A stretch of DNA of 64,000 bases from an uncultured Gammaproteobacteria bacterium (GCA_964365025.1 CAYIOJ010000001.1:42475-106474), one strand, 5' to 3'; positions 39-29,472 are shown, numbered from the stretch's first letter. The notes: a model not told the origin generated them from the letters alone. Translations and numbers: made by a program.

Positions 39-677
39 GTGCCGGTTGGCTGGATGTGCCAATTCCGGTATTTCCTCAAACTCTACAACATGATCAAGGG
101 TGTCCGGGGAGATTTCGTAGAGTGCGGACTCGGTGAGGGCAACACCTTCGCCATGCTCGCCTACTTCATCGGCAGCGAAGATAACCAGCTGTCGCGGACA
201 CTCTGGGGCTTCGATTCATTCGAGGGTTGGCCAGAGCCCGCCGCTTCGGACGCTTCGCCCCGCAACCCCCAAAAAGGTGAGTGGAAGGTTAATGAAGGAA
301 TGATCAGACAAAGGTTCGAGGAATCAGGGATATACAAAGGATTCCCCGACCTTGACGTCAGGATCACCAAGGGATTTTTCAACGTAACCCTGCCCTACTT
401 CCCGGCGCGCCAAATCGCGTTCCTTCACATCGACGCCGACCTCTATCCAGGATATCACGACGCTCTGATCAACCTGTTCCCAAACGTATCGGTTGGTGGA
501 ATCGTCGCTTTCGACGAATACAAGGAGTTTCCCAACAAACCCGAATACGGGAACGGCCAAATCGAAAAATGGCCCGGCTGCACCAAGGCCGTGGACGAGT
601 ACTTCGAGGGTCGTCCGGAGAAGATCCAATACGACCCCGAGACAAAGAAGTATTTTGTCATGAAGGTTGCTCCGTAA
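39..677 (+). CDS. Class I SAM-dependent O-methyltransferase, TylF/MycF (macrocin O-methyltransferase) family. GTG start at 39, but the frame is open to the window edge, so it may be 5'-truncated.
   Basis: Motifs VECGLGEGNTFAML (SAM-binding GxGxG-like) and LHIDADLYPGYHDAL...GGIVAFDEY are typical of the TylF family. The region is GC-rich, unlike its neighbours. Confidence 0.6.
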   Translation: MPVGWMCQFRYFLKLYNMIKGVRGDFVECGLGEGNTFAMLAYFIGSEDNQLSRTLWGFDSFEGWPEPAASDASPRNPQKGEWKVNEGMIRQRFEESGIYKGFPDLDVRITKGFFNVTLPYFPARQIAFLHIDADLYPGYHDALINLFPNVSVGGIVAFDEYKEFPNKPEYGNGQIEKWPGCTKAVDEYFEGRPEKIQYDPETKKYFVMKVAP

Positions 678-2426: not shown

Positions 2427-3383
2427 TTAATTATCTTTATACAAGTTTGAGATCCCCATAATTACAATCCCAATAAAGATTATTATTGCCCCGCTGATTC
2501 TAAATGGACGGGTATTTTGTTTAAAGACAATTAACACAAAAAAAATGGACCACAAGGCATCAATTCTTTTTAAAGTTCCTACCACGACAGCTGTTGGTAT
2601 TAAAGTATAAGCCACGCCCTGAAACCCATTGGCTATACCAAAACACAACCCCGCAATAGCCAACAACCAAATCGTTTCTTGTTTCCAGACCAAACTTTTC
2701 TTTTCTGTTAAAACGACTTCCGGTCTAGTCGGTCTTAGCCAGCCGTAAACAGTATAAAATAATCCCCACCCCACTAAAAGGGTAATGCCCGGGGCCAACA
2801 TGCTGTTGGTGTGAAGTATATTTAATTTATCAAAAGGAACTGATATTCCCGCGCTAACACCGGCAATGATCGCGAACACCAACCAATCTTTCCACTCGCG
2901 AATTATACGCTTAATCGGGCCTGTAACGCTGGAATTATTACTTTCTTTATAAAATGCATAAACACCAAATAAAGTGACAAAAATTCCAATAACGCCCGAT
3001 ATGTTTGGCATCTCATTCAACAACAATTTTCCAACAAACAAAGTAATAATTGGACCAAAAACTTGCACTTGCGGACCTACCGCCGGATCTGTTTTTTCCA
3101 GCGCCCCGAACCAACAATAAGCAATAATTATGTTTAAGACTACGGCAATGAAGAAACTGCCAAGAATCTTAATTGAAAAAAATCCCGTCGGAATTCCATA
3201 AAAGACAAAAGACAAAGAAATTAACATTATCCCCGCCACTAAACCAGATACTGCGCGAATAACCGAAGAATTTACTCCTTTATTTAAAATAATTTTTTGA
3301 ATATTCCACCACAACCCCATTAATGCCCCGTAACCGAAAATAACGAAAACAAATCCGAGTAATATTTTGAAAGAAATTGCCAT
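2427..3383 (-). CDS. Polytopic membrane protein, DMT/EamA-like permease (about 10 TM).
   Basis: 318 aa, hydrophobic helices throughout, two-halves organisation typical of EamA transporters. Confidence 0.4.
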   Translation of the reverse strand: MAISFKILLGFVFVIFGYGALMGLWWNIQKIILNKGVNSSVIRAVSGLVAGIMLISLSFVFYGIPTGFFSIKILGSFFIAVVLNIIIAYCWFGALEKTDPAVGPQVQVFGPIITLFVGKLLLNEMPNISGVIGIFVTLFGVYAFYKESNNSSVTGPIKRIIREWKDWLVFAIIAGVSAGISVPFDKLNILHTNSMLAPGITLLVGWGLFYTVYGWLRPTRPEVVLTEKKSLVWKQETIWLLAIAGLCFGIANGFQGVAYTLIPTAVVVGTLKRIDALWSIFFVLIVFKQNTRPFRISGAIIIFIGIVIMGISNLYKDN

Positions 3384-3385
3384 TA

Positions 3386-4309
3386 CTATGAGATTAAAAA
3401 TTCAATGGCTTTATAAACTCGGTCAACGGGCGACGCCTCATTGTCCAACAAAACATACGGTGGTTTTTCCATCTCTGGTTTAATGTCGGCGAACTCGTCT
3501 GAATTGGTAAAACTGTACGGAAAGCTCAAAAGCCCGGCGTCGTTGCCAACCGGCATATCGCCAAAAGTCGCCACCTGATTTGATTCCAATCCTAAAAGTT
3601 TCAAAACAGACTTAATCGCTACCGTTTTACTGTCTTCTTCCAATTTTCTGGTGATATGAACATAAGTATCATCACCGGCGACCGCGCGATAGACCTCGCC
3701 AAGAGCTTGGTTAAGCTTGGCCACGACTGGCGCGTGTAAAGATTTATCTTTGGGTAAAACAAATGTGACTTTGGCCTGCTCGGTAAAAAATTCGCCATCA
3801 TATGGTCGGCAGACATCAATCATTTCCGCTGGAACATAACCATCCCAAGAATCTTGTAGAAATTTTTTAAAGGTCTCCAATCCTTTTTCCGCCAAGTCGG
3901 CCCGGCTGATGCTCAATTTTTTATAAACATCCTGGCCGACTTCGGCCGCTTGCTTAACTTGCGACAATTCAAAACCGTGATTGTAAATCTCCACCAGTTC
4001 ATTCTTTTTTACTTCATAAAGAGTGGTGCCGTTGCCCCCGGCGACAAAGCTGGGCACGGACACATTTTCCCGATTTAACAACTCTTGCAATGGCGGTACA
4101 AGAACTTTAACGGCCGTGGCGGCGCGGGCGGTAATAAAAGCCACGGATTTATCTTTGGCCAAAATCTTTTCCACCAAACCAAACACTTGCGGCTGTTTAT
4201 GCGTGGTGTCGCTTACTGTCCCATCATAATCCAAACCAAACAATTTAATCAACGGCTTGGCCTCTTCCAATTTGACCCGGGCCAATTCCTTGTGTGCTGT
4301 AATATCCAT
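3386..4309 (-). CDS. HAD-superfamily (subfamily IIB-like) hydrolase / sugar-phosphate phosphatase.
   Basis: N-terminal DxDGT motif (GLDYDGTVSD) and C-terminal FGDMPVGNDAGLL (motif IV GDxxND). Confidence 0.55.
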   Translation of the reverse strand: MDITAHKELARVKLEEAKPLIKLFGLDYDGTVSDTTHKQPQVFGLVEKILAKDKSVAFITARAATAVKVLVPPLQELLNRENVSVPSFVAGGNGTTLYEVKKNELVEIYNHGFELSQVKQAAEVGQDVYKKLSISRADLAEKGLETFKKFLQDSWDGYVPAEMIDVCRPYDGEFFTEQAKVTFVLPKDKSLHAPVVAKLNQALGEVYRAVAGDDTYVHITRKLEEDSKTVAIKSVLKLLGLESNQVATFGDMPVGNDAGLLSFPYSFTNSDEFADIKPEMEKPPYVLLDNEASPVDRVYKAIEFLIS

Positions 4310-4318
4310 ATATAAAAA

Positions 4319-5860
4319 TTAAACAATCCAATAAGTTAACACGGTTTTACGATTTTGATTTTTCATTATTTCCGGGTCTTCATAATAAGAGTCGCCCGGA
4401 ATGTGGGTAGTGGAAACTTCTTCAAAAATACATCCGTTTTTGGTGGTAAATGAATGATTAACACCGCGCTCCACCACTACGATATCGCCCGCTTTGCTTT
4501 CCAATAGTTTGCCATCCAAATTAAATGTGACGTCGCCGTACAAAACATTAAACGTCTCTTCTTTCACTTTGTGAAAATGCGCAGGATGTCGCTGGCCAGA
4601 TAAAACTATGATCAACTTTTTACAATATTCCCGATTGATACAGCTGGCGATGCTGGCTCCGATTTCATAAAATCTGTCCAAACCATAATGGTGCGAAAGC
4701 TCAAAATTCCATTTATTGGAAAAAGGGATATTGGCCTGGCGCAGGAGCTTATTGACTTTTTCAACCGCTTCGTAAACTTTTTCCCGAGCGTCCAGTTGGC
4801 TCACATCGGCCGCCAAAATCGGCTCGTTCTTTTTAAAATCCTTCAAGGCGTTCAAAATCATATACTTTGACATTCCATTGGCCAAAACTTGTCCTGCCTG
4901 ATTAGGAAACGCGAAAAAAGTATTTTTTACCTCCACCCGTTCCCCCGCTTTAATATCGCTGACGGCAAAAACCCCCCGTTGGAACTGACGGATATCAGCC
5001 AGCTCTTGCTGGGCAAATTCATGCCGTTGGCCAGCCACCCCGCAATAAATATAAGCCTCCCGCGCCGCTTCCAGCCACTTTCTAATTTGTTCGGGAGTGG
5101 CTGAATAAGCGTTGATTGGATACTTCTCACTTTTTATCGCCACATGCTTTTCAAAAAACCCCGCCCTCTTGGCCACAGCCAATTTAACGGCTTCAAAATT
5201 ATCCGGCGACTCGTGTGTGGAAAATCCAATCACCACCTCAGGGTATCGTTTTTTTAATAAACTTATCTGATTAAGTTGTAGCTGATCTGCCGGCGTGGGA
5301 TATTGCCCCACGCAATGCATGATGGCAAATTTTTTATTCCGGTGCTGAAAAAAACTAACCACCTTGTCAATGTCTTCAATCTTTGCGCCGCCGATAGAAG
5401 CTACAATGGGCTTATCGGTTTGAATAATTTGTTCCAGGAGCGGCCAATCAGTAAATGAACAACTGGCCACTTTAATGATGTCGTAACCGTGCTTGACAAT
5501 ATTTTCCACCGATTTCTCGTCAAACGGAGTACAAATGGTAATAAAACCGAGTTTCTGCGCTTCGTTTTTCAATTTCAACACATCTTCTTCGCTTAATTTT
5601 GTTTCAGAAAAACGTTTAACATATTTTAAATCCATTCGATTTTTGTAATCTGGGTGAATAAAGGTGTCCAAATCTCGATATTGGAATTTAAAAGCAAAAT
5701 TCCAGCCCAAAACGAAAAAATCTTTAACCACTTCGTGAATGTCTCTGATAATTTTTAGCCCGTGCTCCACATCGCCCATGTGATTATTGGCCATTTCAAA
5801 AATAAAAAGCGGGCTGGCGAATTTTTCTTGACATTGATTAAAAATTTGGTCGATTTTCAT
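4319..5860 (-). CDS. NeuB/PseI-family ulosonic (sialic-like) acid synthase fused to a C-terminal cupin domain.
   Basis: N-terminus IFEMANNHMGDVEHGLKII...FKFQ matches the NeuB TIM-barrel signature (AEIGxNHxG...KFQ). A SAF-like segment (VSDIKAGERVE) follows. The C-terminal 120 aa carry a two-His cupin motif (GQRHPAHFHKVKEETFNVLYGD). Confidence 0.6.
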   Translation of the reverse strand: MKIDQIFNQCQEKFASPLFIFEMANNHMGDVEHGLKIIRDIHEVVKDFFVLGWNFAFKFQYRDLDTFIHPDYKNRMDLKYVKRFSETKLSEEDVLKLKNEAQKLGFITICTPFDEKSVENIVKHGYDIIKVASCSFTDWPLLEQIIQTDKPIVASIGGAKIEDIDKVVSFFQHRNKKFAIMHCVGQYPTPADQLQLNQISLLKKRYPEVVIGFSTHESPDNFEAVKLAVAKRAGFFEKHVAIKSEKYPINAYSATPEQIRKWLEAAREAYIYCGVAGQRHEFAQQELADIRQFQRGVFAVSDIKAGERVEVKNTFFAFPNQAGQVLANGMSKYMILNALKDFKKNEPILAADVSQLDAREKVYEAVEKVNKLLRQANIPFSNKWNFELSHHYGLDRFYEIGASIASCINREYCKKLIIVLSGQRHPAHFHKVKEETFNVLYGDVTFNLDGKLLESKAGDIVVVERGVNHSFTTKNGCIFEEVSTTHIPGDSYYEDPEIMKNQNRKTVLTYWIV

Positions 5861-18731: not shown

Positions 18732-19775
18732 CTAAAAAGAACCGTCAAATTTCTTAACATATTCTTCCGTTGGTTGAATCTCCTTCATCTGCGTTTGATT
18801 TTTACCAAGCACTTCCCAAACGGCCGAAACAATCTGGCCAGCTTGCGGGTAGAAAAATTCTTCCAATTTGTAGCTGGTGGGAGACGGTGATTCTGCCAAA
18901 CTTATCCGTTTAATCGGCGCTCGTAAATAAGACATGGCCTCCTCGGCCACGGTAGCGGCAATTTCGCTGGCCAGGCCGCACATTAAATGACCAGTATCAG
19001 CCACTACCAAATGACCGGTTTTTGTGACTGATGTCAAAACAGTTTGCTTATCCCACGGCTTTAAAGATCGCAAATCAATAATTTCCGCCTTTATTCCTTT
19101 TTCCGCCAAAATGGCGGCGGCTTTCATTGCTTCCAAAACCATCTGAGATATAGCGACGATAGTAACATCATCGCCTGATCTCATTATTTTGGCCGATCCC
19201 AAAGGAATGGTGTAATACTCTGTCGGAACGTCGCCAATTTCTTTATGCAACCAACGATGTTCTATAAAAATCACCGGACATTTTTCTTTAAAACTAGACA
19301 ACAGTAAGCCTTTCGCGTCATAAGGAGTAACTGGCATGACTACTTTTAATCCGGGTATATGCACAAATAATGATTGCAAACTTTGTGAATGTTGCGGCCC
19401 CTGGCCCCAGCCGCGGCCGATGATCGCCCGTAAAATAATCGGCGCGGACATCCGACCGCCATAAGTATAGCTCCATTTAGCCGCGTGATTAACGATTTGA
19501 TCCATGGCCAAAAGCATAAAATCATCACGCGCATATACCAGCATAGGGTGCATCCCCATCACGGCCGCGCCCAGAACCACGCCAGTTAAAGCATTTTCAG
19601 ACAGCGGCGTATCTTCCACTCTTTTTGAACCAAACTTCAAAAAGGCCTCGCGAGTGGTATTAAAAATACCAGCGGCGTCATCGACTCCCTCGCCTAACAC
19701 AAAAATTTCCGGCTGTCTCTCCATGGCGAGAACAATTGCTTCGCTAACGGCTTGGGCATAGGTAATCTCACGCAT
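18732..19775 (-). CDS. Alpha-ketoacid dehydrogenase / transketolase-like E1 component, beta subunit.
   Basis: N-terminal REAIxxAM-like MREITYAQAVSEAIVLAMERQPEIFVLGEGV. 347 aa with a C-terminal transketolase-C-like region. Confidence 0.65.
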   Translation of the reverse strand: MREITYAQAVSEAIVLAMERQPEIFVLGEGVDDAAGIFNTTREAFLKFGSKRVEDTPLSENALTGVVLGAAVMGMHPMLVYARDDFMLLAMDQIVNHAAKWSYTYGGRMSAPIILRAIIGRGWGQGPQHSQSLQSLFVHIPGLKVVMPVTPYDAKGLLLSSFKEKCPVIFIEHRWLHKEIGDVPTEYYTIPLGSAKIMRSGDDVTIVAISQMVLEAMKAAAILAEKGIKAEIIDLRSLKPWDKQTVLTSVTKTGHLVVADTGHLMCGLASEIAATVAEEAMSYLRAPIKRISLAESPSPTSYKLEEFFYPQAGQIVSAVWEVLGKNQTQMKEIQPTEEYVKKFDGSF

Positions 19776-19777
19776 AT

Positions 19778-20758
19778 CTAAACAGGATAAACAAATTTTA
19801 ATAAATCTTCTTGGCTGGGAAAAGGACTGTTTTTAGCAAAATTAACCGCCCCCTCAATCTCTTCTGACAAATCTTTGGTAATTTTATTCTTTTCGTCCAG
19901 AGAAAGGATTTGTTCACTCAAAAGATAATCCTCAAATGTTCTAACAGGACAATGCTTCATCCAGTCGCTAACTTCGCACGCCGGACGATGGCCATGCTCC
20001 TGGTCGCAATTAGGGCCAACATGCTCGCGCCAACGATAGGTGCGACACTCCAAAAGAGTCGGACCATTGCCAAAACGCGCCCGCGCTATCGCTTCCTGGC
20101 CTGCTTGATACACGGCCAAGACATCATTACCATCTACAGCCTGTCCGGGCATATTAAAGGCGGCGGCATGAGTAAAAATATCCATATTTTTGCGCCGCGC
20201 TTCCAGACGAGACAAAACCGCATAAAAATTATTTTCGCAAACAAAAACTATTGGTAAATTTTTTAAAGACGCGTAATTCAAGCTCTCAAAAAAAACGCCT
20301 TCGTCAGCTCCGCCATCGCCAAAAAAACTTATTGCCACTCTTTTTTCATCGCGTTTCTGGAAAGCTAACGCTGCTCCAGTTGCAATGGGAATAGTGCCGC
20401 CGACAATAGACGAAGCGGCTATAAAACCAGTCTGGGGAGCCGTCAAATGCATTGAACCGCCGATACCTCGGCTGCAACCAGTGACCTTGCCATAAAGTTC
20501 AGCCAGCATTTCTTTAATTGACCCGCCCATAGCCAAATAATGAGCATGACAGCGATGATGGCTGAAGACGGCGTCAGTCGGCCCCAAAAGTTGGCAAATC
20601 CCAGCGGCAATCGCTTCTTCGCCGATCGACAAATGAGTGGGACAACGCATCTCTTGTTCCGGATACAACTCAATAATCTTTTCGCTTACCAAACGGATCT
20701 TCAACATTCTATAATAAAGATCTTTTAAAATTTCCGGCAATACATTTTCAGCTTTCAT
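19778..20758 (-). CDS. TPP-dependent dehydrogenase E1 component, alpha subunit.
   Basis: TPP-binding GDGGADEG...NN motif (FFGDGGADEGVFFESLNYA...VCENN); 326 aa. Confidence 0.65.
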   Translation of the reverse strand: MKAENVLPEILKDLYYRMLKIRLVSEKIIELYPEQEMRCPTHLSIGEEAIAAGICQLLGPTDAVFSHHRCHAHYLAMGGSIKEMLAELYGKVTGCSRGIGGSMHLTAPQTGFIAASSIVGGTIPIATGAALAFQKRDEKRVAISFFGDGGADEGVFFESLNYASLKNLPIVFVCENNFYAVLSRLEARRKNMDIFTHAAAFNMPGQAVDGNDVLAVYQAGQEAIARARFGNGPTLLECRTYRWREHVGPNCDQEHGHRPACEVSDWMKHCPVRTFEDYLLSEQILSLDEKNKITKDLSEEIEGAVNFAKNSPFPSQEDLLKFVYPV

Positions 20759-20761
20759 ATA

Positions 20762-21856
20762 TTAAATAAAATTAACGTGTTCGGGCGGTTGATTTTTGAG
20801 CTGCCACAAAAAGCGATTGACTTCGTCCATCCGGCAATTATTACGGCATTCGGTGATATTAAAATTATCCTTCAACAAAGCCCAATTATTTTTTCTTTTT
20901 TCTCCTTCCCAAATTTCAACAAACGATTGCTGGTTGATGTTGCCGCAGTTGAATCGTTCATCGCTTAAAAAAGCGCTGCAACTGTATAAATCTCCGTTAG
21001 CCATAAGATAGGCCCAGAAAAACGGCGTGGCATGGCAGATTTGGTAAGATTTTTCTTGCGCGTCCCACTTTTTCATGGTGCGATCGCGGAAGATGGCGCT
21101 AAATTTATCATCGGATATTTTTTTTAATTCTTCCGCCAATCCTAAAAATGATTCGTATTTAATGTCTTCATAGCGCTTAGTCAAACTAAAATGATGTTGC
21201 GAGTACGGTTTGACGACAAAATAATCTAAACCAATTTCTTTCAACAGATTAGCTAAAGCTACGACCTCGTGCTTATTTTCTGGCAATAAAATCATCTGCG
21301 CTCCCAGTGTGCAATTAAGGCCTCCGGCCCTTTTGATTTCTACAGCTCTTTTCAAATTTTGAATCACGCGATGGAAATCATCCGATTGAGCGCGGTGGAT
21401 TTGTTGATATGTCTCGGGTGAGCCGGCATTTAAACTAACCTTAATCCAGGTGATTGAAGACAGAGCTTTTTGTAAAAATTTCTCTGAAAGCAGAACGCCA
21501 TTAGTTGTGTAGGAGACATCAATGCCGGAGGACTTCGCGTGATTGGTTAACTCAATAATTTGCGGATGCAACAAGGGTTCGCCTTCTCCGCCAAACATGA
21601 CGCTTTTGACTTTTTTCTCGCCCATTTGCGTCAAAGCGGATGTTAATTTTTCCGTATTTAAAAATACCGGTTTGTAGCCAATATAATCCACGGCGCAAAA
21701 AACACAACGATGATTGCAGGCGCCGGAAGGCGAAATTTCAATATAGATAGGATAAACTTTTTTGGCCTTTTCCCAGTCATCGCCGGCTTGCAGCCATTCA
21801 GCTACGCGCTCCGGATGATAAACTATTTTTTGGTTGTCTATACCGTATTTATCCAT
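20762..21856 (-). CDS. Radical SAM enzyme (paralog of 16921..18024).
   Basis: SPSGACNHRCVFCAV (Cx3Cx2C), GGEGEPLL SAM motif, C-terminal cysteines CSAFLSDERFNCG...CRNNC, ends ...VNFI. Confidence 0.6.
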   Translation of the reverse strand: MDKYGIDNQKIVYHPERVAEWLQAGDDWEKAKKVYPIYIEISPSGACNHRCVFCAVDYIGYKPVFLNTEKLTSALTQMGEKKVKSVMFGGEGEPLLHPQIIELTNHAKSSGIDVSYTTNGVLLSEKFLQKALSSITWIKVSLNAGSPETYQQIHRAQSDDFHRVIQNLKRAVEIKRAGGLNCTLGAQMILLPENKHEVVALANLLKEIGLDYFVVKPYSQHHFSLTKRYEDIKYESFLGLAEELKKISDDKFSAIFRDRTMKKWDAQEKSYQICHATPFFWAYLMANGDLYSCSAFLSDERFNCGNINQQSFVEIWEGEKRKNNWALLKDNFNITECRNNCRMDEVNRFLWQLKNQPPEHVNFI

Positions 21857-21994
21857 AATTTTAAACTTAAACTACCATCATAATTTATCAAAAAATAGTA
21901 ATTATGTCAAAATTCCGCCAAAAAAAAGTGCCCGACGGATTAGTTCTTTTTTTGAGAACATCCGCAAGGCACTGATAAGTTGTTTTATATGGCT

Positions 21995-22690
21995 CTAACT
22001 AAGGTTTTCAATCAGGGCGGGAACATTGATTTCCCGCCAGTCAAAAAAGACGCGACAGGCGCCTGCATCAACAAGAGCGCCGACAGTTGAACCGCGAATG
22101 ACGACTGGCATGCCGACGGCCTTGGAGCCGGCAGCAATAGCGGCCTGCACGCCGCGAGGTGAATCCTCAAAGACGAGCTGTTGGCGCGGATCGATTCCCA
22201 TGATCGAGGCCGTTTTCAGGAAAACATCAGGCGCCGGTTTGAGCCGCTTAACATGCTCACGAAGAATGATGCTGTCCCTTCCGAAATGGTCCAAAAGGCC
22301 AGACCCTTCCAGAAGCCGCCCCGCCTCCTGTTCTGGCGTGAGCGAGCCAATGGAGACGGAGATATTCAAGCCACGGACAGTTTTCAGGAAGCCGAAGAAT
22401 CCTGGCCTAGCAGAAATCGCCGTACCCGCAAGGTTCTCTCTGTAGTAATGCTCCGTGCGTTGACGAATATAATCTGACGATATTGACTTCTGCTGTTCAG
22501 CATTCAACAGATTCCAGATGTCCACGTGGACATCTGGCCCGCCAATGAAACGAGGAAGTCTAACCAAGGCCTCTTCATACGAAAGATCGATTCCGACCTC
22601 CTTTGCTGAAGCAAGGTGCGCGGCATGATGAGCCGCCTCAACATCAACGACAGTACCTTCTAGGTCAAAAGCGATGCCACGAATTAACAT
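21995..22690 (-). CDS. HAD-superfamily hydrolase (beta-phosphoglucomutase-like subfamily IA).
   Basis: IRGIAFDLEGTVVD (DxxGT motif I) and C-terminal FEDSPRGVQAAIAAG (motif III/IV). The region is GC-rich. Confidence 0.55.
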   Translation of the reverse strand: MLIRGIAFDLEGTVVDVEAAHHAAHLASAKEVGIDLSYEEALVRLPRFIGGPDVHVDIWNLLNAEQQKSISSDYIRQRTEHYYRENLAGTAISARPGFFGFLKTVRGLNISVSIGSLTPEQEAGRLLEGSGLLDHFGRDSIILREHVKRLKPAPDVFLKTASIMGIDPRQQLVFEDSPRGVQAAIAAGSKAVGMPVVIRGSTVGALVDAGACRVFFDWREINVPALIENLS

Positions 22691-22694
22691 GGTA

Positions 22695-23579
22695 CTACTC
22701 TCCTTTCTTGAGGGCGAGCCAAAGACTCGACCCTACGATGAGGGTTCCGCCGATCACTACTTGTGTCGTCAGTGGTTCGCGCAGGATCAAAAACGCGTAC
22801 ACGATCGCAAAGACCGGTTCACTCTTCCCAAGAATTGAAACGTGCAGTGAACGCGTCTTGCTGATTCCGTAGTTGTGGATTCCGGAAGCAACGACAGCAA
22901 AGGCCAGGCCGAAACCGATGAGTGGAATGACGTCAGAACTCTGCAACTCTCCCAGTTTCATCCAAGGCGTGACGGCAAGGAGGAGCACGGTGCTCATCGC
23001 ATACCGCCAGAAGTTTACCGCGCTGATCGTAATGCCCCTATCTGGATTGAGAATCGTGCGATAAAGCACGATGAGAAAAGCGTAAAAAAGTCCGGAAATC
23101 ACGCCGAGCGTAATTCCCACTAGATGGGATTTCTCACCACTCGTTCCGAGCTGATTGCTGTAGAGCGCCACAATGCCCGCAAGAGAAACAACGAGCGCCA
23201 CCCATTCATCTTTACGCGTACGCTCACGTAGTAGAAGCGGTGCGAGAATCAAAAGAAAAATCGAAACCGATTGATGTGCTACTGCCGCGTTCGCCACCGA
23301 TGTCATGGTGAACGCGAAAAAGTAACACAAGTCGTTCATGGTTGCTGTTACAGCAAGCGTGGCAAGAAGAATGTAATCGCGTTTCGTAAGGCGGGGCATT
23401 CCCTGGAGGCGGGCAATGATAAAAAAACTTATCATGCCGACCACCTGAAATATGCCCAGAAATGTGAGAGGAGAAATCTGCGGGCAGAGCCGCAAAAAAA
23501 GTGAGTATGACCCAAATATCGCCATAGCAACTAGTACGAGTAGGTCACCGGAAAATGTCCGCTTGGTTTCCATGGCCAA
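22695..23579 (-). CDS. DMT/EamA-family transporter.
   Basis: 294 aa, 10 predicted TM helices in a two-repeat arrangement; GC-rich codon usage. Confidence 0.45.
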   Translation of the reverse strand: MAMETKRTFSGDLLVLVAMAIFGSYSLFLRLCPQISPLTFLGIFQVVGMISFFIIARLQGMPRLTKRDYILLATLAVTATMNDLCYFFAFTMTSVANAAVAHQSVSIFLLILAPLLLRERTRKDEWVALVVSLAGIVALYSNQLGTSGEKSHLVGITLGVISGLFYAFLIVLYRTILNPDRGITISAVNFWRYAMSTVLLLAVTPWMKLGELQSSDVIPLIGFGLAFAVVASGIHNYGISKTRSLHVSILGKSEPVFAIVYAFLILREPLTTQVVIGGTLIVGSSLWLALKKGE

Positions 23580-23648
23580 CTTCCTTTCTAACTAAAATGT
23601 CAAAGAGCCATCGTTACTTTATAGCACAATCATATCTGAACGTCAAGT

Positions 23649-23678
23649 AAAAAAACCGCCTTGAGTTATTCAAAGCGG
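23649..23678 (-). terminator. Rho-independent terminator for the 23698..24459 gene (minus strand).
   Basis: On the minus-strand RNA, CCGCUUUG/CAAGGCGG forms an 8-bp stem (one G-U wobble) with a 7-nt loop, followed by a U7 run (A-run 23649-23655 on the plus strand). Confidence 0.5.
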
Positions 23679-23697
23679 CAGGGACTGTCTTTTGGTT

Positions 23698-24459
23698 TTA
23701 ATGGACCGAAACGCCAAAGTCTCCAAATCTGGCTCGGGCAACCAAGTAGAGAGACAGCGGCGTGACCGGACCATACTTGTCCCTCTCACAAAACATGACC
23801 TGGATAACATTGTTAGGAGTAAGTTGGAAGGGCAAAACCTCGCCTTCCCACTTGTCTTCGGCCTTCTCCCAACTGACCTTGAGTTCACCAATGGTTTCCT
23901 TAAGGGAAACCATGACGACCAGTGTATGGTGGTACTTGGCCGCTGGCGGGCTAACTTGGACCAACCCAAGCACCTTGAGCTGGGAGAATCCTACAGTTAC
24001 CCCAAACTCTTCCAGCATTTCTTGGACGATGTGGTGGAAAAAACGAGGATGAGGGGGCGTACAGCCCGGCACCCTAATTCCGCCTCCGACAGTGGCGGCA
24101 ATGGAGGCCACTGGCGCCTGCAAAGCCACAAAGCCATCAGAAGTGATTGGTATCATAGCCACGCCCAACCAACCCAGCACCATCCCTTGCTTGTAGTCAG
24201 ATGACACAACATCAAGAAGCAATCTTGCGCCATCATCAGAAAATTGGAAACCATCCAATCTCACGGTCGCGCCTGCAAAAGCCTTGGGATTCTTTGCGAG
24301 GACATCTTGCCAAGACGCCTCAATCCTGGCTTGCTGATTAGGGTCAATGAGAGTTGCTCCCCCTTTTTCAGTAAAGACGACATCATCTATCGAAAACGAT
24401 CTGTCAACAAGTATCTGCACCAGCGGATCACTGAACCGCAGCGTCGTTTCAGCATACAC
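23698..24459 (-). CDS. Hypothetical protein with a degenerate Nudix-like box (Nudix-fold candidate).
   Basis: 253 aa, GC-rich. The segment GGGIRVPGCTPPHPRFFHHIVQEMLEEFGV matches the second half of the Nudix box (REUxEExGU as QEMLEEFGV) but lacks the first conserved Glu. Confidence 0.25.
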   Translation of the reverse strand: MYAETTLRFSDPLVQILVDRSFSIDDVVFTEKGGATLIDPNQQARIEASWQDVLAKNPKAFAGATVRLDGFQFSDDGARLLLDVVSSDYKQGMVLGWLGVAMIPITSDGFVALQAPVASIAATVGGGIRVPGCTPPHPRFFHHIVQEMLEEFGVTVGFSQLKVLGLVQVSPPAAKYHHTLVVMVSLKETIGELKVSWEKAEDKWEGEVLPFQLTPNNVIQVMFCERDKYGPVTPLSLYLVARARFGDFGVSVH

Positions 24460-24469
24460 GGGACACCTC

Positions 24470-25093
24470 CTAATTGATCACTTGTGAAAACATGCCAAGC
24501 CCGAACTCTTTATAGCTAACGAAATCATGCCTGGCAATGTCTCTAGCCACGCCGGTCAGGAAAAAGCCGGGTTTGTCAATATTTTCGGCCCACTTTTGCA
24601 GATGTGCTTCCACTTGCTCGCATCTGGTCCAACCCTTATTCCCAGCCGTGACCACGAGATGCACTGGCGCTCTATAACGCCAGAGTTTGTCAGCGTCACG
24701 CACCAAGGCATCTTCCATAGCGTAAAAGCCCTGACGAGTGTCGTGCTGAGCGATAATGGTAAGAATGGCGCCGATACAGGCCGGGCTGTAATTGACCGAA
24801 CACAGAATCTTTAGCGCCAAATCCAGAGCATAGATTTGATGCTCCAAGCGCGCCGTATACTCCGCCTCTTTACTCGGCGGATTGTAGGCGATGAGGAGCT
24901 TGTCGGCCGGCATCATGCTCCAACCAATATCGTGGAACATAATGGCCGGAACCACAATTCGCGCCTTGGCCGAAGGGATTCGCGCCAAAAGCCGCAGGGC
25001 ATAACCAGTAGCAATGGCCGCGTGTCCCGTGTCGTTGCGCTTGTCTTGATACGGCAGAGCCAATTTCCAGATTTGTGCGAATTTTGTTTTCAC
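24470..25093 (-). CDS. HD-domain metal-dependent phosphohydrolase.
   Basis: GHAAIATGYALRL ... IMFHDIGW ... RDADKL gives the H...HD...D pattern; 207 aa. Confidence 0.55.
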   Translation of the reverse strand: MKTKFAQIWKLALPYQDKRNDTGHAAIATGYALRLLARIPSAKARIVVPAIMFHDIGWSMMPADKLLIAYNPPSKEAEYTARLEHQIYALDLALKILCSVNYSPACIGAILTIIAQHDTRQGFYAMEDALVRDADKLWRYRAPVHLVVTAGNKGWTRCEQVEAHLQKWAENIDKPGFFLTGVARDIARHDFVSYKEFGLGMFSQVIN

Positions 25094-25155
25094 TTACGCC
25101 TCCTGTGCGTTGAATTGATAAGGTGCAATGCTAAAATTAAGCCTACTAAAAATAC

Positions 25156-25181
25156 AAAAAAAGTCAAGACGCGGCTTGACT
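25156..25181 (-). terminator. Rho-independent terminator ending the minus-strand heptose / radical SAM operon.
   Basis: 7-bp stem agtcaag/cttgact with loop acgcgg. On the minus-strand RNA it is followed by U7 (plus-strand A-run 25156-25162), 34 nt downstream of the 25215 stop. Confidence 0.55.
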
Positions 25182-25214
25182 ATGCGCTATCCACCCTATG
25201 GTGAATAAAGCACT

Positions 25215-26648
25215 TTATTTATCTTCTGTGCTAGAAAAAATATTTTTGGACTTGAACAATTTAGGGAAGAAAGTCTGCAAACCGAAATAAATATCCAAAA
25301 ACAAAGTTTTATTTTTAAGAGACAACCACACTCTTCTTAAAAGATAACGCGGATTAAAATAAAAATTTTGATAATACTTTTCTAATATCTCATGTGACAA
25401 GTTGGGATGATTGTAAATATCACCGGCCTGATGAAGGTTGTAAAGACGCCAGTCGCGACTCTTAATCAACCCCTGACTCTCACATTGAGAGTACAACTCC
25501 GTGCCTGGGAAAGGAACGGTGATGGTAACTTTGGCATAATCCGGTACCAAATCCAAGGCCAGTTTAGTGGTCTTCTTCAAACTTTCTTCGGAATCAGCCG
25601 GCAAACCAAACATGAAAAAGCCAATACTTTCCAGTCCCGCCTTTCTGACCAGCTTCATAGCGGCATAACTATCTTCAACTTTAATATTTTTGCAAATGGA
25701 ATCCAGACTGGCCTGATCACCGGATTCAAATCCAATTGATACTTGATATAGCCCCGCCCGCTTGGCTAAATTGAGAAACTCCAAATCCATTGAATCAACT
25801 CGCAATCCGGCCGACAGTGTCCATGGAAATTTCAAATTTCTTTGAATTATCAGTTCACAAATTTTTTTCGCCCTCGCCATATCTGTAGTGAACATATCAT
25901 CAAGAATACGGATCTCCCTTATGCCGCAATTTAACATATATTCAATTTCATCTACCGCCAACTCAACCGAACGGGCGCGAAAACGCCGGCCAAAAATATT
26001 TTTGTTACAAAAAGTACAGCCAAAAACGCAGCCGCGACTGCTCATATAATTACACATCGGACTCAAACGATTTAAAACGCGCGGACATTTATATCTTTTT
26101 AGGTCAAACAAATCCAACGCTGGGAATGGCAGCCAATTCAAATCGTTAGTCGGAAAACGCGGCGGGGTGTTTAAAATTTGTCCTTCTTCTTTATAATAAA
26201 TACCGGCAACTTCTTTTAATGGCTTTTCTTTTAAAATATCAACCAGTGTCAGTTCACCCTCGCCATAAATTAAAATTTCAAAATGAGAATCTCGCAATGT
26301 TTCAACGGGTAGTGCGGTGGCATGTGGTCCGCCAATAATCAATTTTGTTCTATTGCCCAAGTGATCTTTAATAATTTTACTTAAAGTGACGGCTTCAAAA
26401 AAAAGCGGGGTGGTGGCGGTTAAGCCAATAAATCGCGGATTATATTCGTCCAATTTTTTGTGCAAAAGCCGATATGGATTAAGCTCAATGCCTAAATCAA
26501 TAATTTTAACCTTAAATCTTTCTTTACGCGCCGCCGCGGCGAGATAAGCAAAAGACAACAAAGGATAATTTTGCGTCGCGGCATTAATCCTGGTGCCGGA
26601 ATAGGAAGAAAAAGCCGATGGTAAGTTGATCAATAATAAATCCACCAT
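25215..26648 (-). CDS. Cobalamin-binding radical SAM enzyme (class B).
   Basis: N-terminal B12-binding-like domain, then MSSRGCVFGCTFCNK (Cx3Cx2C); 477 aa. Confidence 0.65.
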   Translation of the reverse strand: MVDLLLINLPSAFSSYSGTRINAATQNYPLLSFAYLAAAARKERFKVKIIDLGIELNPYRLLHKKLDEYNPRFIGLTATTPLFFEAVTLSKIIKDHLGNRTKLIIGGPHATALPVETLRDSHFEILIYGEGELTLVDILKEKPLKEVAGIYYKEEGQILNTPPRFPTNDLNWLPFPALDLFDLKRYKCPRVLNRLSPMCNYMSSRGCVFGCTFCNKNIFGRRFRARSVELAVDEIEYMLNCGIREIRILDDMFTTDMARAKKICELIIQRNLKFPWTLSAGLRVDSMDLEFLNLAKRAGLYQVSIGFESGDQASLDSICKNIKVEDSYAAMKLVRKAGLESIGFFMFGLPADSEESLKKTTKLALDLVPDYAKVTITVPFPGTELYSQCESQGLIKSRDWRLYNLHQAGDIYNHPNLSHEILEKYYQNFYFNPRYLLRRVWLSLKNKTLFLDIYFGLQTFFPKLFKSKNIFSSTEDK

Positions 26649-26650
26649 AT

Positions 26651-27286
26651 TTAATCAGTTCTAATTTCACCTTCTATTTTATCAACTGCGGCTGAAAAAA
26701 CATCCACAGCCGCATATTTATTATTAGTCAGTGATAAAACCTTAACCTTTTCAAATTCATTAATATATTTTTCGTCTTTTATAATAATTCCACAACCGCC
26801 GGCATTAACGCCCATTGCAGCATCATCAAAACGATTGCCAATGGCAAAAATACGATGTTGCGTGTAATCAATACCAAGCTCCTTGGCTGCTTTATCTAAC
26901 ATCCCTATGCTGGGCTTACGCAAAGACGTGGCGTCCTTGACCACCCAAGGCGTGTTTAAATCTAGGCCTTGTTTAGAGGCCCAATCAAAATCAACAAAAG
27001 GGCAAATTTGCCAATTATCAATAATAGCGCCAGCGGCGCGCAATAATTTATCAATTTCCTTGTTAATATCCAAAATCGTTTCTAAACTAAAATAGCCGCG
27101 AGCCACTCCAAACTGATTGCTCGCGACTATGACTTTGGCGAAAAGATTTAACCTTTTAATTCCCTCAACCACCCCGTCTAACAATCGCAATTGTTTGTGC
27201 CAATCCGGGTCGCGGCCAAACCAGCCGGGATCAAAATTAATCGTGCCGTCGCGATCCAAAATCACCAAAATTTTGTTCCGCAACAT
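26651..27286 (-). CDS. gmhB: HAD-IIIA hydrolase, D-glycero-D-manno-heptose 1,7-bisphosphate phosphatase-like.
   Basis: ILVILDRDGTIN (the GmhB DRDGT motif) and the GNRFDD motif IV. Confidence 0.55.
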   Translation of the reverse strand: MLRNKILVILDRDGTINFDPGWFGRDPDWHKQLRLLDGVVEGIKRLNLFAKVIVASNQFGVARGYFSLETILDINKEIDKLLRAAGAIIDNWQICPFVDFDWASKQGLDLNTPWVVKDATSLRKPSIGMLDKAAKELGIDYTQHRIFAIGNRFDDAAMGVNAGGCGIIIKDEKYINEFEKVKVLSLTNNKYAAVDVFSAAVDKIEGEIRTD

Positions 27287-27294
27287 AGATAAAT

Positions 27295-27924
27295 TTAAAC
27301 AAGATTATTAAGCGGGCCGCCGCCATTTCTTTCATTGGTGGTGATAAATTGATTTCTATAAAAAACAATCTGCTCCAAAATGCAATCGCAAATAAGCAAA
27401 TGAGTGGATTCAACTTTATTAAAATGCTTGCTCGCCACGTGAAAATTAAGATTACCGACTTTGCGCAAACGATTGGTCGGTTCAAAACCGGAAAAAGTAA
27501 TAATATGACAACCGCAACGACGCGCTTCTTCTGTTGCCAAGACAATATTTTCGGAATTTCCTGACGAACTTATGGCCACTAAAACATCACCGGCATCGGC
27601 AAACATATTGATTGGTCTAGCGAAGACATGGCTGTAACCAAAATCATTACTAACGCAAGTCAAAAGCGCGTCGTCGCTAAAACTAACGCCTCTAACTTTT
27701 CCGGTAAACCAAAAATCCAAGGCCTTGTGATTAGCCACCGCGGCGCTGCCGCCATTGCCGATAAAAATCACCTTTTTCCCTTTGGAATTGGAAGAAATTA
27801 TTAAATCGGTGGCCTCGCGAATACCCAGACGAAAATCCATGGTTTGGCTGTTCAAGTCAGTAACTTGAGTGCCTAAAAATAAATCATGAATGTTCTGTAT
27901 GTAATTATGCACTAATTCATCCAT
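27295..27924 (-). CDS. gmhA: SIS-domain sedoheptulose-7-phosphate isomerase.
   Basis: KVIFIGNGGSAAVANH is the characteristic GmhA GNGGSAA motif. 209 aa, SIS-domain length. Confidence 0.7.
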   Translation of the reverse strand: MDELVHNYIQNIHDLFLGTQVTDLNSQTMDFRLGIREATDLIISSNSKGKKVIFIGNGGSAAVANHKALDFWFTGKVRGVSFSDDALLTCVSNDFGYSHVFARPINMFADAGDVLVAISSSGNSENIVLATEEARRCGCHIITFSGFEPTNRLRKVGNLNFHVASKHFNKVESTHLLICDCILEQIVFYRNQFITTNERNGGGPLNNLV

Positions 27925-27936
27925 ACTAGATAAAAA

Positions 27937-29472
27937 TTATTTTAACAAAGCGCCGATCGATTTTAAAAATATTGAAGCGTCAATTGCCGATTTGTTGCCA
28001 ACTATCTGCACTTTAAAAGCGCCGGCCAAATTACCGATAAAACCAACTAAATCCATGGGGAACCCGGCGGCTACGCAAGGCGAAGTAACGGCTAGAAAAG
28101 CATCACCGGCGCCAATACGATCTACCACTTTATTTGATAGCACCGGCGCGTAAGAAAATCCTTCACGGGCGCAATAAGACATCGAACCGCGGTGACCCAA
28201 GGTAACAATCGCCTTTTCCGTTTGCGATTTGGCCACCACTTCTTTAATTAAATCTTCGACCGGCGAAAATTTTTGATGAGTCGCCAATCTAAGCTCCTGC
28301 ACATCAAGGCAGATATAATCGGCGCGCGGATATTTGGTAATTAAATTGAATCCATAATTAGCGCTGTTAGTTTGAGTGTTAACTGCCAAAAATTTGGCTT
28401 TTTGACATATTAAGTCAATTAAATCCTGATCAAGGAAACCGTGCGCATAATCCAATACTATCACTAAATCATATTCAGGAACAGCGTTGGACAAATAATT
28501 TTTAATCTGGTCGCGCACCGCCGGTGGCAAACTGCTATCGTCAAAATAATAAATTTCAAATAATTTATTCAAAAAGGCCGCATCCACAAATCGCCGCTTA
28601 ACAATACTGCATGTATCGTCGCGGTAAAAAAATTTAGTACCGATGTTTGGCTTCAAACTTCTGGCGATAAAATCGATTTTAGAATCCTTGCTGCCAAGAC
28701 AAGTAACCAAATGAACATCGTCGCAAAAACCGGCCAAATGATTAACTAGAGCCAAAGCGCCACCGGCGTAAGCCTCTTCATTGAGGTATTTCATCACCAC
28801 CAAATTCTCTTTGCCGGCTTTGCCCAAGGGCGAACAAAAATGATATTCATCAATCACCGCTTCGCCAACCACCAAAACTTTCATTTTTTTCAATTGCTGG
28901 AATCTTTGTTTAATTTCGTCAATGGAATACTTTTCTTTTATTTTCTGTAAAAAAACGCGCACCGGTTCCGGATATATATTAAAATGGCTGTTAAGCAAAT
29001 TGGAAGAACTGAAAGTAATTTCTTCGGTAAAATAAATTTCTCCGCCGACTGATTTTATTGCTTCATTTTCTTTGTATAAGCCCCTGGTCGGATCATTGAG
29101 ACCAACGCGATATTCGCGGTCTTTGACGTAAAAATTCGGTTTTAATTTCTTGATGGCCTCTACCGCGTTGGGCCACTGATTTATAGCGATGTAATCCACA
29201 CAGGCCAAAGAAGCAATGGTCTCGGCGCGCAAATCCGCGGTAAAAACCGGGCGTCCCGGTCCTTTATTCACATATTGATCCTGGGTGATAGTCACCACCA
29301 AAACATCAGCTGCTTTTTTAGCCGCTTCCAAATGCTTAATATGTCCCAAATGCATTAAATCAAAAACACCGTGGCAATGGGCAACGGTTTTGCCTTCGGC
29401 CTTTAAATTCTGGATAACTTCCGCCAGCTCATCCAAAGTTTTAATCTTGCTGTTGACCATAATGAGTAACAT
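27937..29472 (-). CDS. hldE: Bifunctional heptose-phosphate kinase / heptose-1-phosphate nucleotidyltransferase (HldE/RfaE-like) with inverted domain order (nucleotidyltransferase N-terminal, pfkB kinase C-terminal).
   Basis: N-terminal AHCHGVFDLMHLGHIKHL (HxGH cytidylyltransferase-like, as RfaE domain II). C-terminal pfkB signature DRIGAGDAF and ribokinase-like fold (as RfaE domain I). Confidence 0.6.
   Translation of the reverse strand: MLLIMVNSKIKTLDELAEVIQNLKAEGKTVAHCHGVFDLMHLGHIKHLEAAKKAADVLVVTITQDQYVNKGPGRPVFTADLRAETIASLACVDYIAINQWPNAVEAIKKLKPNFYVKDREYRVGLNDPTRGLYKENEAIKSVGGEIYFTEEITFSSSNLLNSHFNIYPEPVRVFLQKIKEKYSIDEIKQRFQQLKKMKVLVVGEAVIDEYHFCSPLGKAGKENLVVMKYLNEEAYAGGALALVNHLAGFCDDVHLVTCLGSKDSKIDFIARSLKPNIGTKFFYRDDTCSIVKRRFVDAAFLNKLFEIYYFDDSSLPPAVRDQIKNYLSNAVPEYDLVIVLDYAHGFLDQDLIDLICQKAKFLAVNTQTNSANYGFNLITKYPRADYICLDVQELRLATHQKFSPVEDLIKEVVAKSQTEKAIVTLGHRGSMSYCAREGFSYAPVLSNKVVDRIGAGDAFLAVTSPCVAAGFPMDLVGFIGNLAGAFKVQIVGNKSAIDASIFLKSIGALLK

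Follow-up and report, generated by a model that had tools for sequence, protein, structure and literature searches.

A GC-rich patch with a predicted NUDT22-like Nudix protein in a Patescibacteria heptose-type surface-glycan gene cluster

Introduction

Human NUDT22 (PDB 5LF9, 5LOR, 5LOU), a hydrolase of uridine diphosphate (UDP)-glucose and UDP-galactose, cleaves UDP-glucose to UMP (uridine monophosphate) and glucose-1-phosphate and thereby feeds pyrimidine salvage (PMC10101856). It superposes on the whole model of a 253-residue protein, across both the N-terminal and the Nudix-fold domain, that is encoded by one of four minus-strand genes forming a relatively GC-rich patch (21995-25093) in a 64,000-nt stretch of DNA (GCA_964365025.1 CAYIOJ010000001.1:42475-106474), hereafter the window, in which positions are counted from its first letter. 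The Nudix box is atypical in both proteins. Unlike NUDT22, the patch protein is bacterial, lies in a nucleoside diphosphate (NDP)-heptose cluster, has an HD hydrolase as its partner or fused to it and is only ~18% identical to the human enzyme. The Nudix enzymes of bacterial glycan clusters, such as Gmm/WcaH (the E. coli GDP-mannose mannosyl hydrolase), YffH/NudK and the Bdellovibrio NDP-sugar hydrolase, have with it in common the Nudix fold and also a genomic logic, that of a nucleotide-sugar hydrolase among glycan-synthesis genes, as in the colanic-acid cluster. These enzymes are single-domain proteins of ~150-190 residues with a recognizable PF00293 domain (TMq ~0.4), whereas the 253-residue protein carries an extra N-terminal domain and is not detected by PF00293.

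Two further comparisons frame the locus. The HD protein of the patch resembles Bacillus subtilis YpgQ and YqeK and the structure 2PQ7 in its all-helical fold and its full H...HD...H...HD...D set of metal ligands, but the similarity is only moderate (TM 0.58-0.63, E >= 2.6e-3), and the patch subfamily is tied specifically to the NUDT22-like protein. Genomic islands and islets linked to transfer RNA (tRNA) genes resemble the patch in that their composition is atypical, their functions are accessory and their presence varies among relatives; by contrast, the window holds no tRNA, integrase, direct or inverted repeat, and the piece that seems to have moved here is a bare promoter-to-terminator unit of two genes at an operon junction.

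An earlier note, made from the sequence alone, had read the patch as one horizontally acquired 3.2-kb cassette, bounded by terminators and set between two operons. That interpretation is partly supported: foreign origin and gene functions hold, whereas the single block and the donor in another phylum do not. We think it fairly probable, with real room for doubt, that the patch is a genuine accessory module of a Patescibacteria heptose-type surface-glycan cluster, composed of two separately inherited transcription units that came from GC-richer genomes.

Results

Composition and integrity of the patch

The host is a groundwater Patescibacteria (Candidate Phyla Radiation, CPR) metagenome-assembled genome (MAG), whose proteins are named 'MAG: Patescibacteria group bacterium' at NCBI, and the window is one giant heptose-type surface-glycan gene cluster running at length along the minus strand. 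On one flank of the patch lie an HldE-like kinase/nucleotidyltransferase, GmhA, GmhB, a B12-binding radical SAM (B12-rSAM) enzyme and an epimerase; on the opposite flank, a radical SAM/SPASM (rSAM/SPASM) gene, E1 alpha/beta and glycosyltransferases. Genes for Wzy_C-TPR proteins and DUF5667 are found further away in the cluster. The patch itself comprises, all on the minus strand, a HAD gene (21995-22690; GC 0.534, and GC at third codon positions, GC3, 0.543), an EamA gene (22695-23579; 0.508 and 0.569), the NUDT22-like gene (23698-24459; 0.516 and 0.547) and an HD gene (24470-25093; 0.521 and 0.596), against GC 0.32-0.47 and GC3 0.28-0.49 for the remaining minus-strand genes of the window. GC1 and GC2 are likewise elevated in the four genes, so amino-acid usage is shifted too.

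Over 21995-25093 the GC content is 0.514, compared with 0.393 (sd 0.029) in other 3.1-kb windows (z=4.2); the sharp jump is visible both in the sliding GC profile and in the per-gene statistics, and the genes directly flanking the patch show no rise. Two-breakpoint likelihood segmentation of 19000-28000 placed the best-fit borders at 22015 and 25060 (log-likelihood gain 47.6), no more than 35 nt from the coding limits of the four-gene patch. By tetranucleotide distance, the patch ranks 8 of 122 window chunks. The composition jump over four minus-strand genes reported in the earlier note, together with the sliding-window and tetranucleotide checks that it proposed, is thus borne out, though 'GC-rich' is here a relative label (~51% versus ~40%).

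Sharp borders of this kind, at a coverage of only 4-6x according to the contig names, are also what a chimeric assembly joining the DNA of two organisms could give, and the earlier note had held this out as its alternative. The patch junctions are nevertheless the same in three separate assemblies of one population (L001, L002 and L003; 99.94-100% identity), represented by contigs from groundwater well Hainich H51 of 28 kb (replicate R1) and 5.7 kb (replicate R3) and by the Logan assembly of a separate run, ERR3858130. An identical 253-residue protein is encoded on contigs from several separate Hainich H51 assemblies, and the sole return of a metagenome scan for EamA was an additional fragment of the same population from the 0.1-um fraction. 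Moreover, related organisms from other projects (L004 and L006) carry the HD and Nudix genes between the same neighbour genes, and non-coding junction sequence is kept across loci. Because three independent assemblies share the junctions, misassembly is very unlikely and, on this contig comparison, effectively excluded; we give a chimera almost no credence.

Two putative transcription units

The patch seems to consist of two transcription units, one with the HD gene and that for the 253-residue protein and the other with EamA and HAD, rather than of one block, because a terminator and a promoter-like site separate the Nudix gene from EamA and because L004 and L006 carry HD and Nudix without EamA and HAD. 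Terminators were assessed by a hairpin followed by a T-run and by the stability of the hairpin relative to shuffled sequence, expressed as z. The HD-Nudix unit ends in an intrinsic terminator (23655..23679, minus strand) with a 10-bp stem and T7 (-14.6 kcal/mol, z -2.95), the sequence of which is kept 3' of the Nudix gene in L004 and L006. Directly beyond it stands a promoter-like site, TTGACG-17-TATAAA (23618..23646, minus strand), which was read from the sequence and would serve the EamA+HAD unit; the promoter scanner did not list it because its -10 hexamer ends in A, and an aligned counterpart, TTTACA-16-TATTAT, occurs in L048, a contig that carries a second copy of the unit. A strong intrinsic terminator with a long stem and T8 (21927..21973, minus strand; -23.6 kcal/mol, z -4.69) follows the HAD gene and closes the cassette, and L048 has a homologous hairpin. 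Next comes the promoter-like site of the downstream rSAM/SPASM operon, TTGACA-17-TAAATT with TG (21882..21910, minus strand), which is kept in L004 and L006, there directly after the Nudix terminator. At the upstream edge of the GC-rich stretch, by contrast, the hairpin with T7 after the B12-rSAM gene (25162..25181, minus strand) is weak (-8.7 kcal/mol, z -0.47) and is not convincing as a terminator, although its 'CTTGAC+T-run' is kept in L004.

The earlier description of an island bounded by terminators therefore stands in part. The internal terminator after the Nudix-like gene (23679-23655) is good and conserved in two related loci, and the promoter region of the radical SAM gene at the left edge (21910-21882) is present and conserved as well. 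The right-edge hairpin, however, is a poor boundary marker, and the third and strongest hairpin, at 21973-21927, had been missed.

The Nudix gene diverged with its cluster

All contigs with NUDT22-like homologues are heptose clusters of the same family, and the Nudix gene lies beside heptose genes in L004, L006, L007, L008, L009 and L077. In the window the order is GmhB, B12-rSAM, HD, Nudix, EamA, HAD, rSAM/SPASM; L004 reads GmhB, B12-rSAM, HD, Nudix, rSAM/SPASM, and L006 reads GmhB, a different HD, Nudix, rSAM/SPASM. In L008 a small EamA and a HAD gene precede Nudix between GmhB and rSAM/SPASM. L007 has Nudix directly upstream of HldE, L077 has SemiSWEET, HD and Nudix (as a split open reading frame, ORF) upstream of HldE, and in L009 a Dcm/Vsr module borders Nudix on one side and other cluster genes on the other.

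Pairwise amino-acid and 4-fold-site identities of the Nudix protein track those of HldE and the epimerase: between L004 and L006 they are 0.75/0.69 versus 0.85/0.62 for HldE and the epimerase, and between the window (W) and L004 they are 0.62/0.48 versus 0.72/0.41. The Nudix gene thus appears to have diverged together with the cluster.

These loci bear directly on the idea that all four genes arrived recently as one block from a distant GC-rich donor of another phylum, forming a salvage or detoxification cassette. The four genes are indeed alike in GC (0.51-0.53), contiguous and bracketed by terminator-like sites. Yet HD and Nudix occupy the same slot without EamA and HAD in L004 and L006, HAD and Nudix occur without HD in L008, the divergence of the Nudix gene matches that of its flanks, the EamA+HAD unit alone is common to the window and L048, and the nearest named HAD homologues belong to Patescibacteria. 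Comparison of the loci largely refutes such a block transfer, which we hold to be very improbable; the single cassette of the earlier note gives way to two units with apparently different histories.

Several further features of these loci are worth recording. The B12-rSAM gene that adjoins the patch (25215-26648) is confined to the window and L004, whose copies are 92% identical, far above the neighbouring HldE, GmhA and GmhB (68-75%), and it is absent from this position in L006 and L008, a pattern that points to further gene turnover at the same junction. The transporter beside HD and Nudix in L077 (4571-4825) is an 84-residue SemiSWEET, and that beside HAD in L008 (5335-5742) is a single-domain EamA-like protein of 135 residues. 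In L004 (10902-13244) rSAM/SPASM is split into two ORFs and E1 alpha/beta is replaced by shorter transketolase-type pieces, which could be decay or assembly frameshifts. The NUDT22-like gene of L009 (4046-6582) has a host-like GC3 of 0.43 and stands beside genes for a Dcm methyltransferase, a 282-residue protein and a Vsr endonuclease, that is, a restriction-modification-type module inside the heptose cluster.

A predicted NDP-sugar hydrolase and its HD partner

The 253-residue protein (23698..24459, minus strand), the constant member of the module, has no Pfam match at E<=0.01 (PF00293 included), no NCBIfam match and no match to a PDB chain by sequence. Its AlphaFold2 model (pLDDT 94.3) finds human NUDT22 as the best Foldseek match (TMq 0.71, E 2.9e-15, ~285 columns) over the full two-domain length, followed by NDP-sugar and ADP-ribose hydrolases. 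Only the second half of the Nudix box GX5EX7REUXEEXGU is kept, as QEMLEEFGV (with Q146, E147, E150 and E151), whereas the upstream G(x5)E is not; 30 homologues all have E147, and at least 90% of them keep E150/E151. Gly, Ala, Pro and Val abound in the conserved motifs of the family. The family is rare: an exhaustive profile search of 1.84 billion representative proteins returned 17 representatives at E<=1e-30, or about 17 clusters at 50% identity, and its distant profile matches are PF00293 proteins in which PF00293 lies at the equivalent position. We predict from the modelled fold that the protein belongs to a NUDT22-like Nudix branch and acts as an NDP-sugar hydrolase. The label 'Nudix-like' given earlier was right in kind and is made more precise by the Foldseek result.

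Upstream of it, the 207-residue stand-alone HD-domain phosphohydrolase (24470..25093, minus strand) starts at GTG, with AGGAGG 7 nt upstream. The protein itself has no Pfam or NCBIfam match, and a PDB sequence search gave only chance-level hits, but PF01966 is carried by most of its 273 homologues, and by most of those at 40-50% identity. Residues H24, H54-D55, H85, H117-D118 and D133 are invariant in 30 homologues, so that the H...HD...D motif is present, and the AlphaFold2 model is all-helical (pLDDT 93.7), with the HD hydrolases 2pq7, 2pjq, YpgQ and YqeK as best, albeit weak, PDB matches (TM 0.46-0.63, best E 2.6e-3). Together with Pfam matches for HAD and EamA, these homologues, motifs and models uphold the view that each of the four genes encodes either a small-molecule hydrolase or a transporter.

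HD and the NUDT22-like protein appear to form a functional pair, because the two repeatedly share contigs (at least 6 cases) and are fused in P0273. This natural 445-residue protein joins a NUDT22-like part (residues 2-248) to an HD domain of the patch subfamily that is 31% identical to the patch HD over the full length (E 4e-32); its domains run Nudix-HD, whereas in the window the HD gene precedes the Nudix gene. Within this pairing, the HD partner appears to have been exchanged at least once in the slot. The patch HD is 72% identical to an HD protein on L016 but 47% identical to the cluster-linked HD of L077, and the HD of L006 is of an unrelated type with host-like GC. L016, an untyped contig with GC 0.51-0.57 and a different context, carries EamA, HAD and HD genes and provides the closest HD outside these clusters. 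A 228-residue protein downstream of HD on L016 was considered as a distant member of the Nudix-like family and rejected (hhalign probability 0.2%).

A discrete EamA+HAD cassette

The second unit is a discrete 1.73-kb cassette (21919..23648, minus strand) with its own promoter-like site, two genes and its own terminator. EamA is a transporter of the EamA/DMT superfamily with 292 residues counted from an ATG (22695..23573, minus strand); the ORF as called mechanically begins with the TTG at 23579, and the protein is called with 292 residues in L001-L003. PF00892 scores 116.8 bits over two stretches, in keeping with the two repeats of the family, no named NCBIfam equivalog reached its cut-off, and a PDB sequence search gave no match. 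Its identity is 78% with the L048 copy and 76% with that of L025.

HAD (21995..22690, minus strand; 231 residues) is a HAD-IA phosphatase of the beta-phosphoglucomutase-like kind. It scores 62.7 bits with Pfam Hydrolase (cut-off 26.4), 59.3 with HAD_2 (23.8) and 47.2 with TIGR01509 HAD-IA-v3 (29.4), while all named equivalogs fall below the NCBIfam cut-off, for example 75.2 against 189.4 bits for TIGR01990 (beta-phosphoglucomutase); the nearest PDB entries are beta-phosphoglucomutase and the sugar phosphatase TM_1254 (~1e-13). In its motif I, DLEGT (residues 9-13), Glu replaces the usual second Asp, and none of D9, L10, E11 and G12 varies among 26 family members; enolase-phosphatase E1 is known to have a DxE motif. 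In L001, the 28-kb contig from replicate R1, a G-to-T change on the coding strand (position 12178, window 22282) turns codon 137 (Glu) into a stop, and L003 ends within ~100 nt of window 22282; either a segregating nonsense allele or an error due to low coverage may lie behind the change. In many Patescibacteria, and also in DPANN archaea (Woesearchaeota and Nanoarchaeia), members of this HAD family have GmhA-, GmhB- or HldE-like genes within a few kilobases (L026-L049), an arrangement that suggests a sugar-phosphate role conserved in both small-celled groups.

EamA+HAD alone behaves as a discrete insertion, or mobile cassette, as judged from its distribution. From the first base past the T-run of the Nudix terminator to the end of the T-run of the HAD terminator (23648-21920), the window aligns continuously with L048 5050-6770 (71.4% nucleotide identity over 1750 columns), the promoter-like site and terminator hairpin included. 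L048 is an AT-rich CPR-type MAG, and its neighbourhood is unrelated to the window. Conversely, L004 and L006 lack exactly this cassette, the Nudix terminator abutting the rSAM promoter. A third EamA copy, in the Magasanikbacteria MAG L025, lies inside a 4.6-kb GC-rich patch with EamA, cupin, HAD, DUF218 and IMPase genes.

In L048 the cassette directly follows a tRNA gene with a duplicated 3' end, the arrangement of a tRNA-linked island: 11 nt beyond tRNA-Pro(GGG) (4929-5002) lies a 31-nt near-exact duplicate of its 3' end, which looks like an att-like scar, and the cassette, whose HAD copy there is frameshifted, begins 6 nt past this duplicate. In the window itself, scans for tRNAs and against Rfam returned nothing, a repeat search of 21000-26000 gave only short chance-level repeats with no target-site duplication or terminal inverted repeats, and Pfam detected no recombinase among the four patch genes and the eight flanking genes scanned; the absence of integrase and repeats stated in the earlier note is thereby upheld. 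None of the four patch proteins matched a defence system in PADLOC. A phage origin is unsupported, as PHROGs matched only generic HAD and transporter families and a viral contig scan for EamA was empty.

A second, unrelated EamA and HAD (Hydrolase_3) pair, with host-like GC, lies at window 2427-4309 beside NeuB-cupin and a TPP enzyme, so that the pairing of a transporter with a phosphatase recurs inside one cluster.

Source and age of the GC-rich DNA

Transfer from GC-richer relatives, within the phylum and staggered in time, looks the best reading of these data, because the nearest named HAD proteins are from Patescibacteria and the closest outside HD is on the GC-richer L016. The closest named HAD homologues (53-63% identity) come from Uhr-, Magasanik-, Wolfe- and Liptonbacteria, with weaker matches in DPANN archaea, and one Patescibacteria MAG from the same aquifer, H41-bin078, has a GC of 0.59 and a HAD that is 61% identical. 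The horizontal origin proposed earlier is therefore retained, but not its donor in another phylum. Among the window, L004 and L006, 4-fold sites are only about half diverged, and by our own estimate these three fit a transfer, not yet fully ameliorated, out of a donor whose GC3 was ~0.8.

That the patch is GC-richer than the sampled host background follows from the non-glycan genes at or beyond the right end of the window (sigma-70, HTH, DUF5667 and a 574-residue protein), which have GC 0.37-0.46. The same genes speak to an inversion of the picture, in which the GC-rich genes would have the native composition and the AT-rich glycan genes on either side would be foreign. Surface-glycan clusters are often AT-poorer than their genomes, and the ends of the window are somewhat GC-richer (0.45-0.47 at 58.7-64 kb). 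Still, the non-glycan genes fall below the 0.51-0.53 of the patch, and in several other AT-rich genomes, too, the patch genes stand out as GC-rich, which makes an inverted origin quite improbable.

A stronger challenge to transfer comes from the related loci, nearly all of which have higher GC in the Nudix, HD, HAD and transporter genes than in their flanks, with GC3 of 0.65-0.75 in L004, 0.65 in L006, 0.63-0.68 in L008, 0.50-0.57 in L007 and 0.47-0.59 in L077, the exception being L009 (0.43). The genes might accordingly be native, their high GC being kept by codon or amino-acid selection or by GC-biased gene conversion where a junction is prone to recombination. In that case one would expect GC3 to be raised in the Nudix, HD and transporter genes, as it is in 6/7 related loci even at saturated divergence; the Gly/Ala/Pro/Val-rich motifs of the Nudix family and the frequent gene turnover in this slot point the same way. 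The host-like GC3 of the L009 Nudix gene, on the other hand, indicates that high GC3 is not required; the EamA+HAD cassette, ends included, recurs in the unrelated context of L048; HD identities are incongruent with cluster relatedness (72% for L016 versus 47% for L077, and an HD of different type and host GC in L006); and the adjoining flank genes lack any GC rise. We regard an origin without transfer as unlikely, though it deserves to be kept in view.

Several observations weigh against transfer of two units from GC-richer genomes. The GC of the background genome rests on about 80 kb. A pattern scan of GTDB species representatives returned no member of the Nudix family, no donor genome was found for that family, and all recovered Nudix contexts are AT-rich heptose clusters. 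Nudix GC3 stays high (0.55-0.68) in lineages with partly or fully saturated synonymous sites (4-fold identity of W and L007, 0.27), so a single old transfer followed by neutral amelioration accounts for the close lineages but only with difficulty for the distant ones, in which the high GC3 could reflect repeated exchange, or GC kept by selection or biased gene conversion. Parsimony alone does not settle whether EamA+HAD was inserted here or lost in an ancestor of L004 and L006.

Other GC-rich stretches

The patch is not the sole GC-rich stretch of the window. The strongest, at 52281-55535 on the plus strand (GC 0.56, GC3 0.66), is a 1084-residue ORF with Dicty_CTDC Cys-rich repeats between two Wzy_C-TPR genes; the many long antisense ORFs that overlap it look like by-products of GC content. 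Another occupies window 39-677 on the plus strand and runs on past the left end (L012 10658-13469), with genes for a TylF-type methyltransferase (GC3 0.69), an EamA-like 247-residue protein (0.63) and two proteins with a Pfam Nudix domain, of 152 residues (0.50) and 187 residues (0.68). Beyond it GC3 is back to ~0.33. Its functional theme is the same as that of the patch studied here, but BLASTP identified none of its genes as paralogues of the patch genes.

Discussion

The module can be pictured as follows. The HD and NUDT22-like pair would belong to this cluster family, in a slot beside the NDP-heptose genes HldE, GmhA and GmhB, its Nudix gene having diverged in step with the heptose genes and its HD partner having been swapped. 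The self-contained promoter-EamA-HAD-terminator cassette would be an insertion with the Nudix terminator on one side and the promoter of the next operon on the other. In both units the nucleotide and amino-acid composition is that of GC-richer genomes, and the likeliest sources would be GC-richer Patescibacteria of the same aquifer.

As to function, we infer NDP-sugar breakdown with nucleotide recovery by analogy with NUDT22 and because of the HD fusion, the recurrent adjacency of HAD to GmhA/GmhB-like genes and the interchangeable small transporters. The 253-residue Nudix enzyme would split an NDP-sugar, perhaps NDP-heptose or a derivative, into a nucleoside monophosphate and a sugar-1-phosphate; HD and HAD would dephosphorylate these products; and EamA would move the free sugar or a related metabolite. 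Such a set of four proteins could serve the glycan pathway as a valve for overflow, proofreading or nucleotide recovery. It counts against this scheme that its pathway logic is inference for all four proteins. The salvage or detoxification role suggested earlier is compatible with NDP-sugar breakdown; on this view the module would belong to glycan-pathway housekeeping and would be no unrelated passenger.

More speculatively, AT-rich CPR genomes might share a pool of GC-rich, integrase-less promoter-to-terminator cassettes (Nudix, HD, HAD and IMPase enzymes; EamA and SemiSWEET transporters) that are slotted into operon junctions of glycan clusters and whose GC is actively maintained, with the HD/NUDT22-like pair as a dedicated nucleotide-recovery valve. 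We offer this broader proposal as a long shot.

Neither the transfer of small gene units nor the presence of a Nudix NDP-sugar hydrolase among glycan genes is new as a phenomenon, and the patch, a well-delimited case, does not overturn current understanding; what it adds is an unannotated NUDT22-like family and an unexplained, persistent GC enrichment. For annotation, it defines a rare NUDT22-like Nudix family outside Pfam, tied to Patescibacteria NDP-heptose glycan clusters and coupled to an HD hydrolase. For genome evolution, it would provide a clean small case of gene flow within the CPR phylum, in which two genes have apparently moved as a unit, along with a promoter and terminator of their own and with no recognizable recombinase. 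Patescibacteria generally lack nucleotide synthesis, and a nucleotide-recovery role, if true, would bear on how such reduced bacteria balance the cost of nucleotide-activated sugars.

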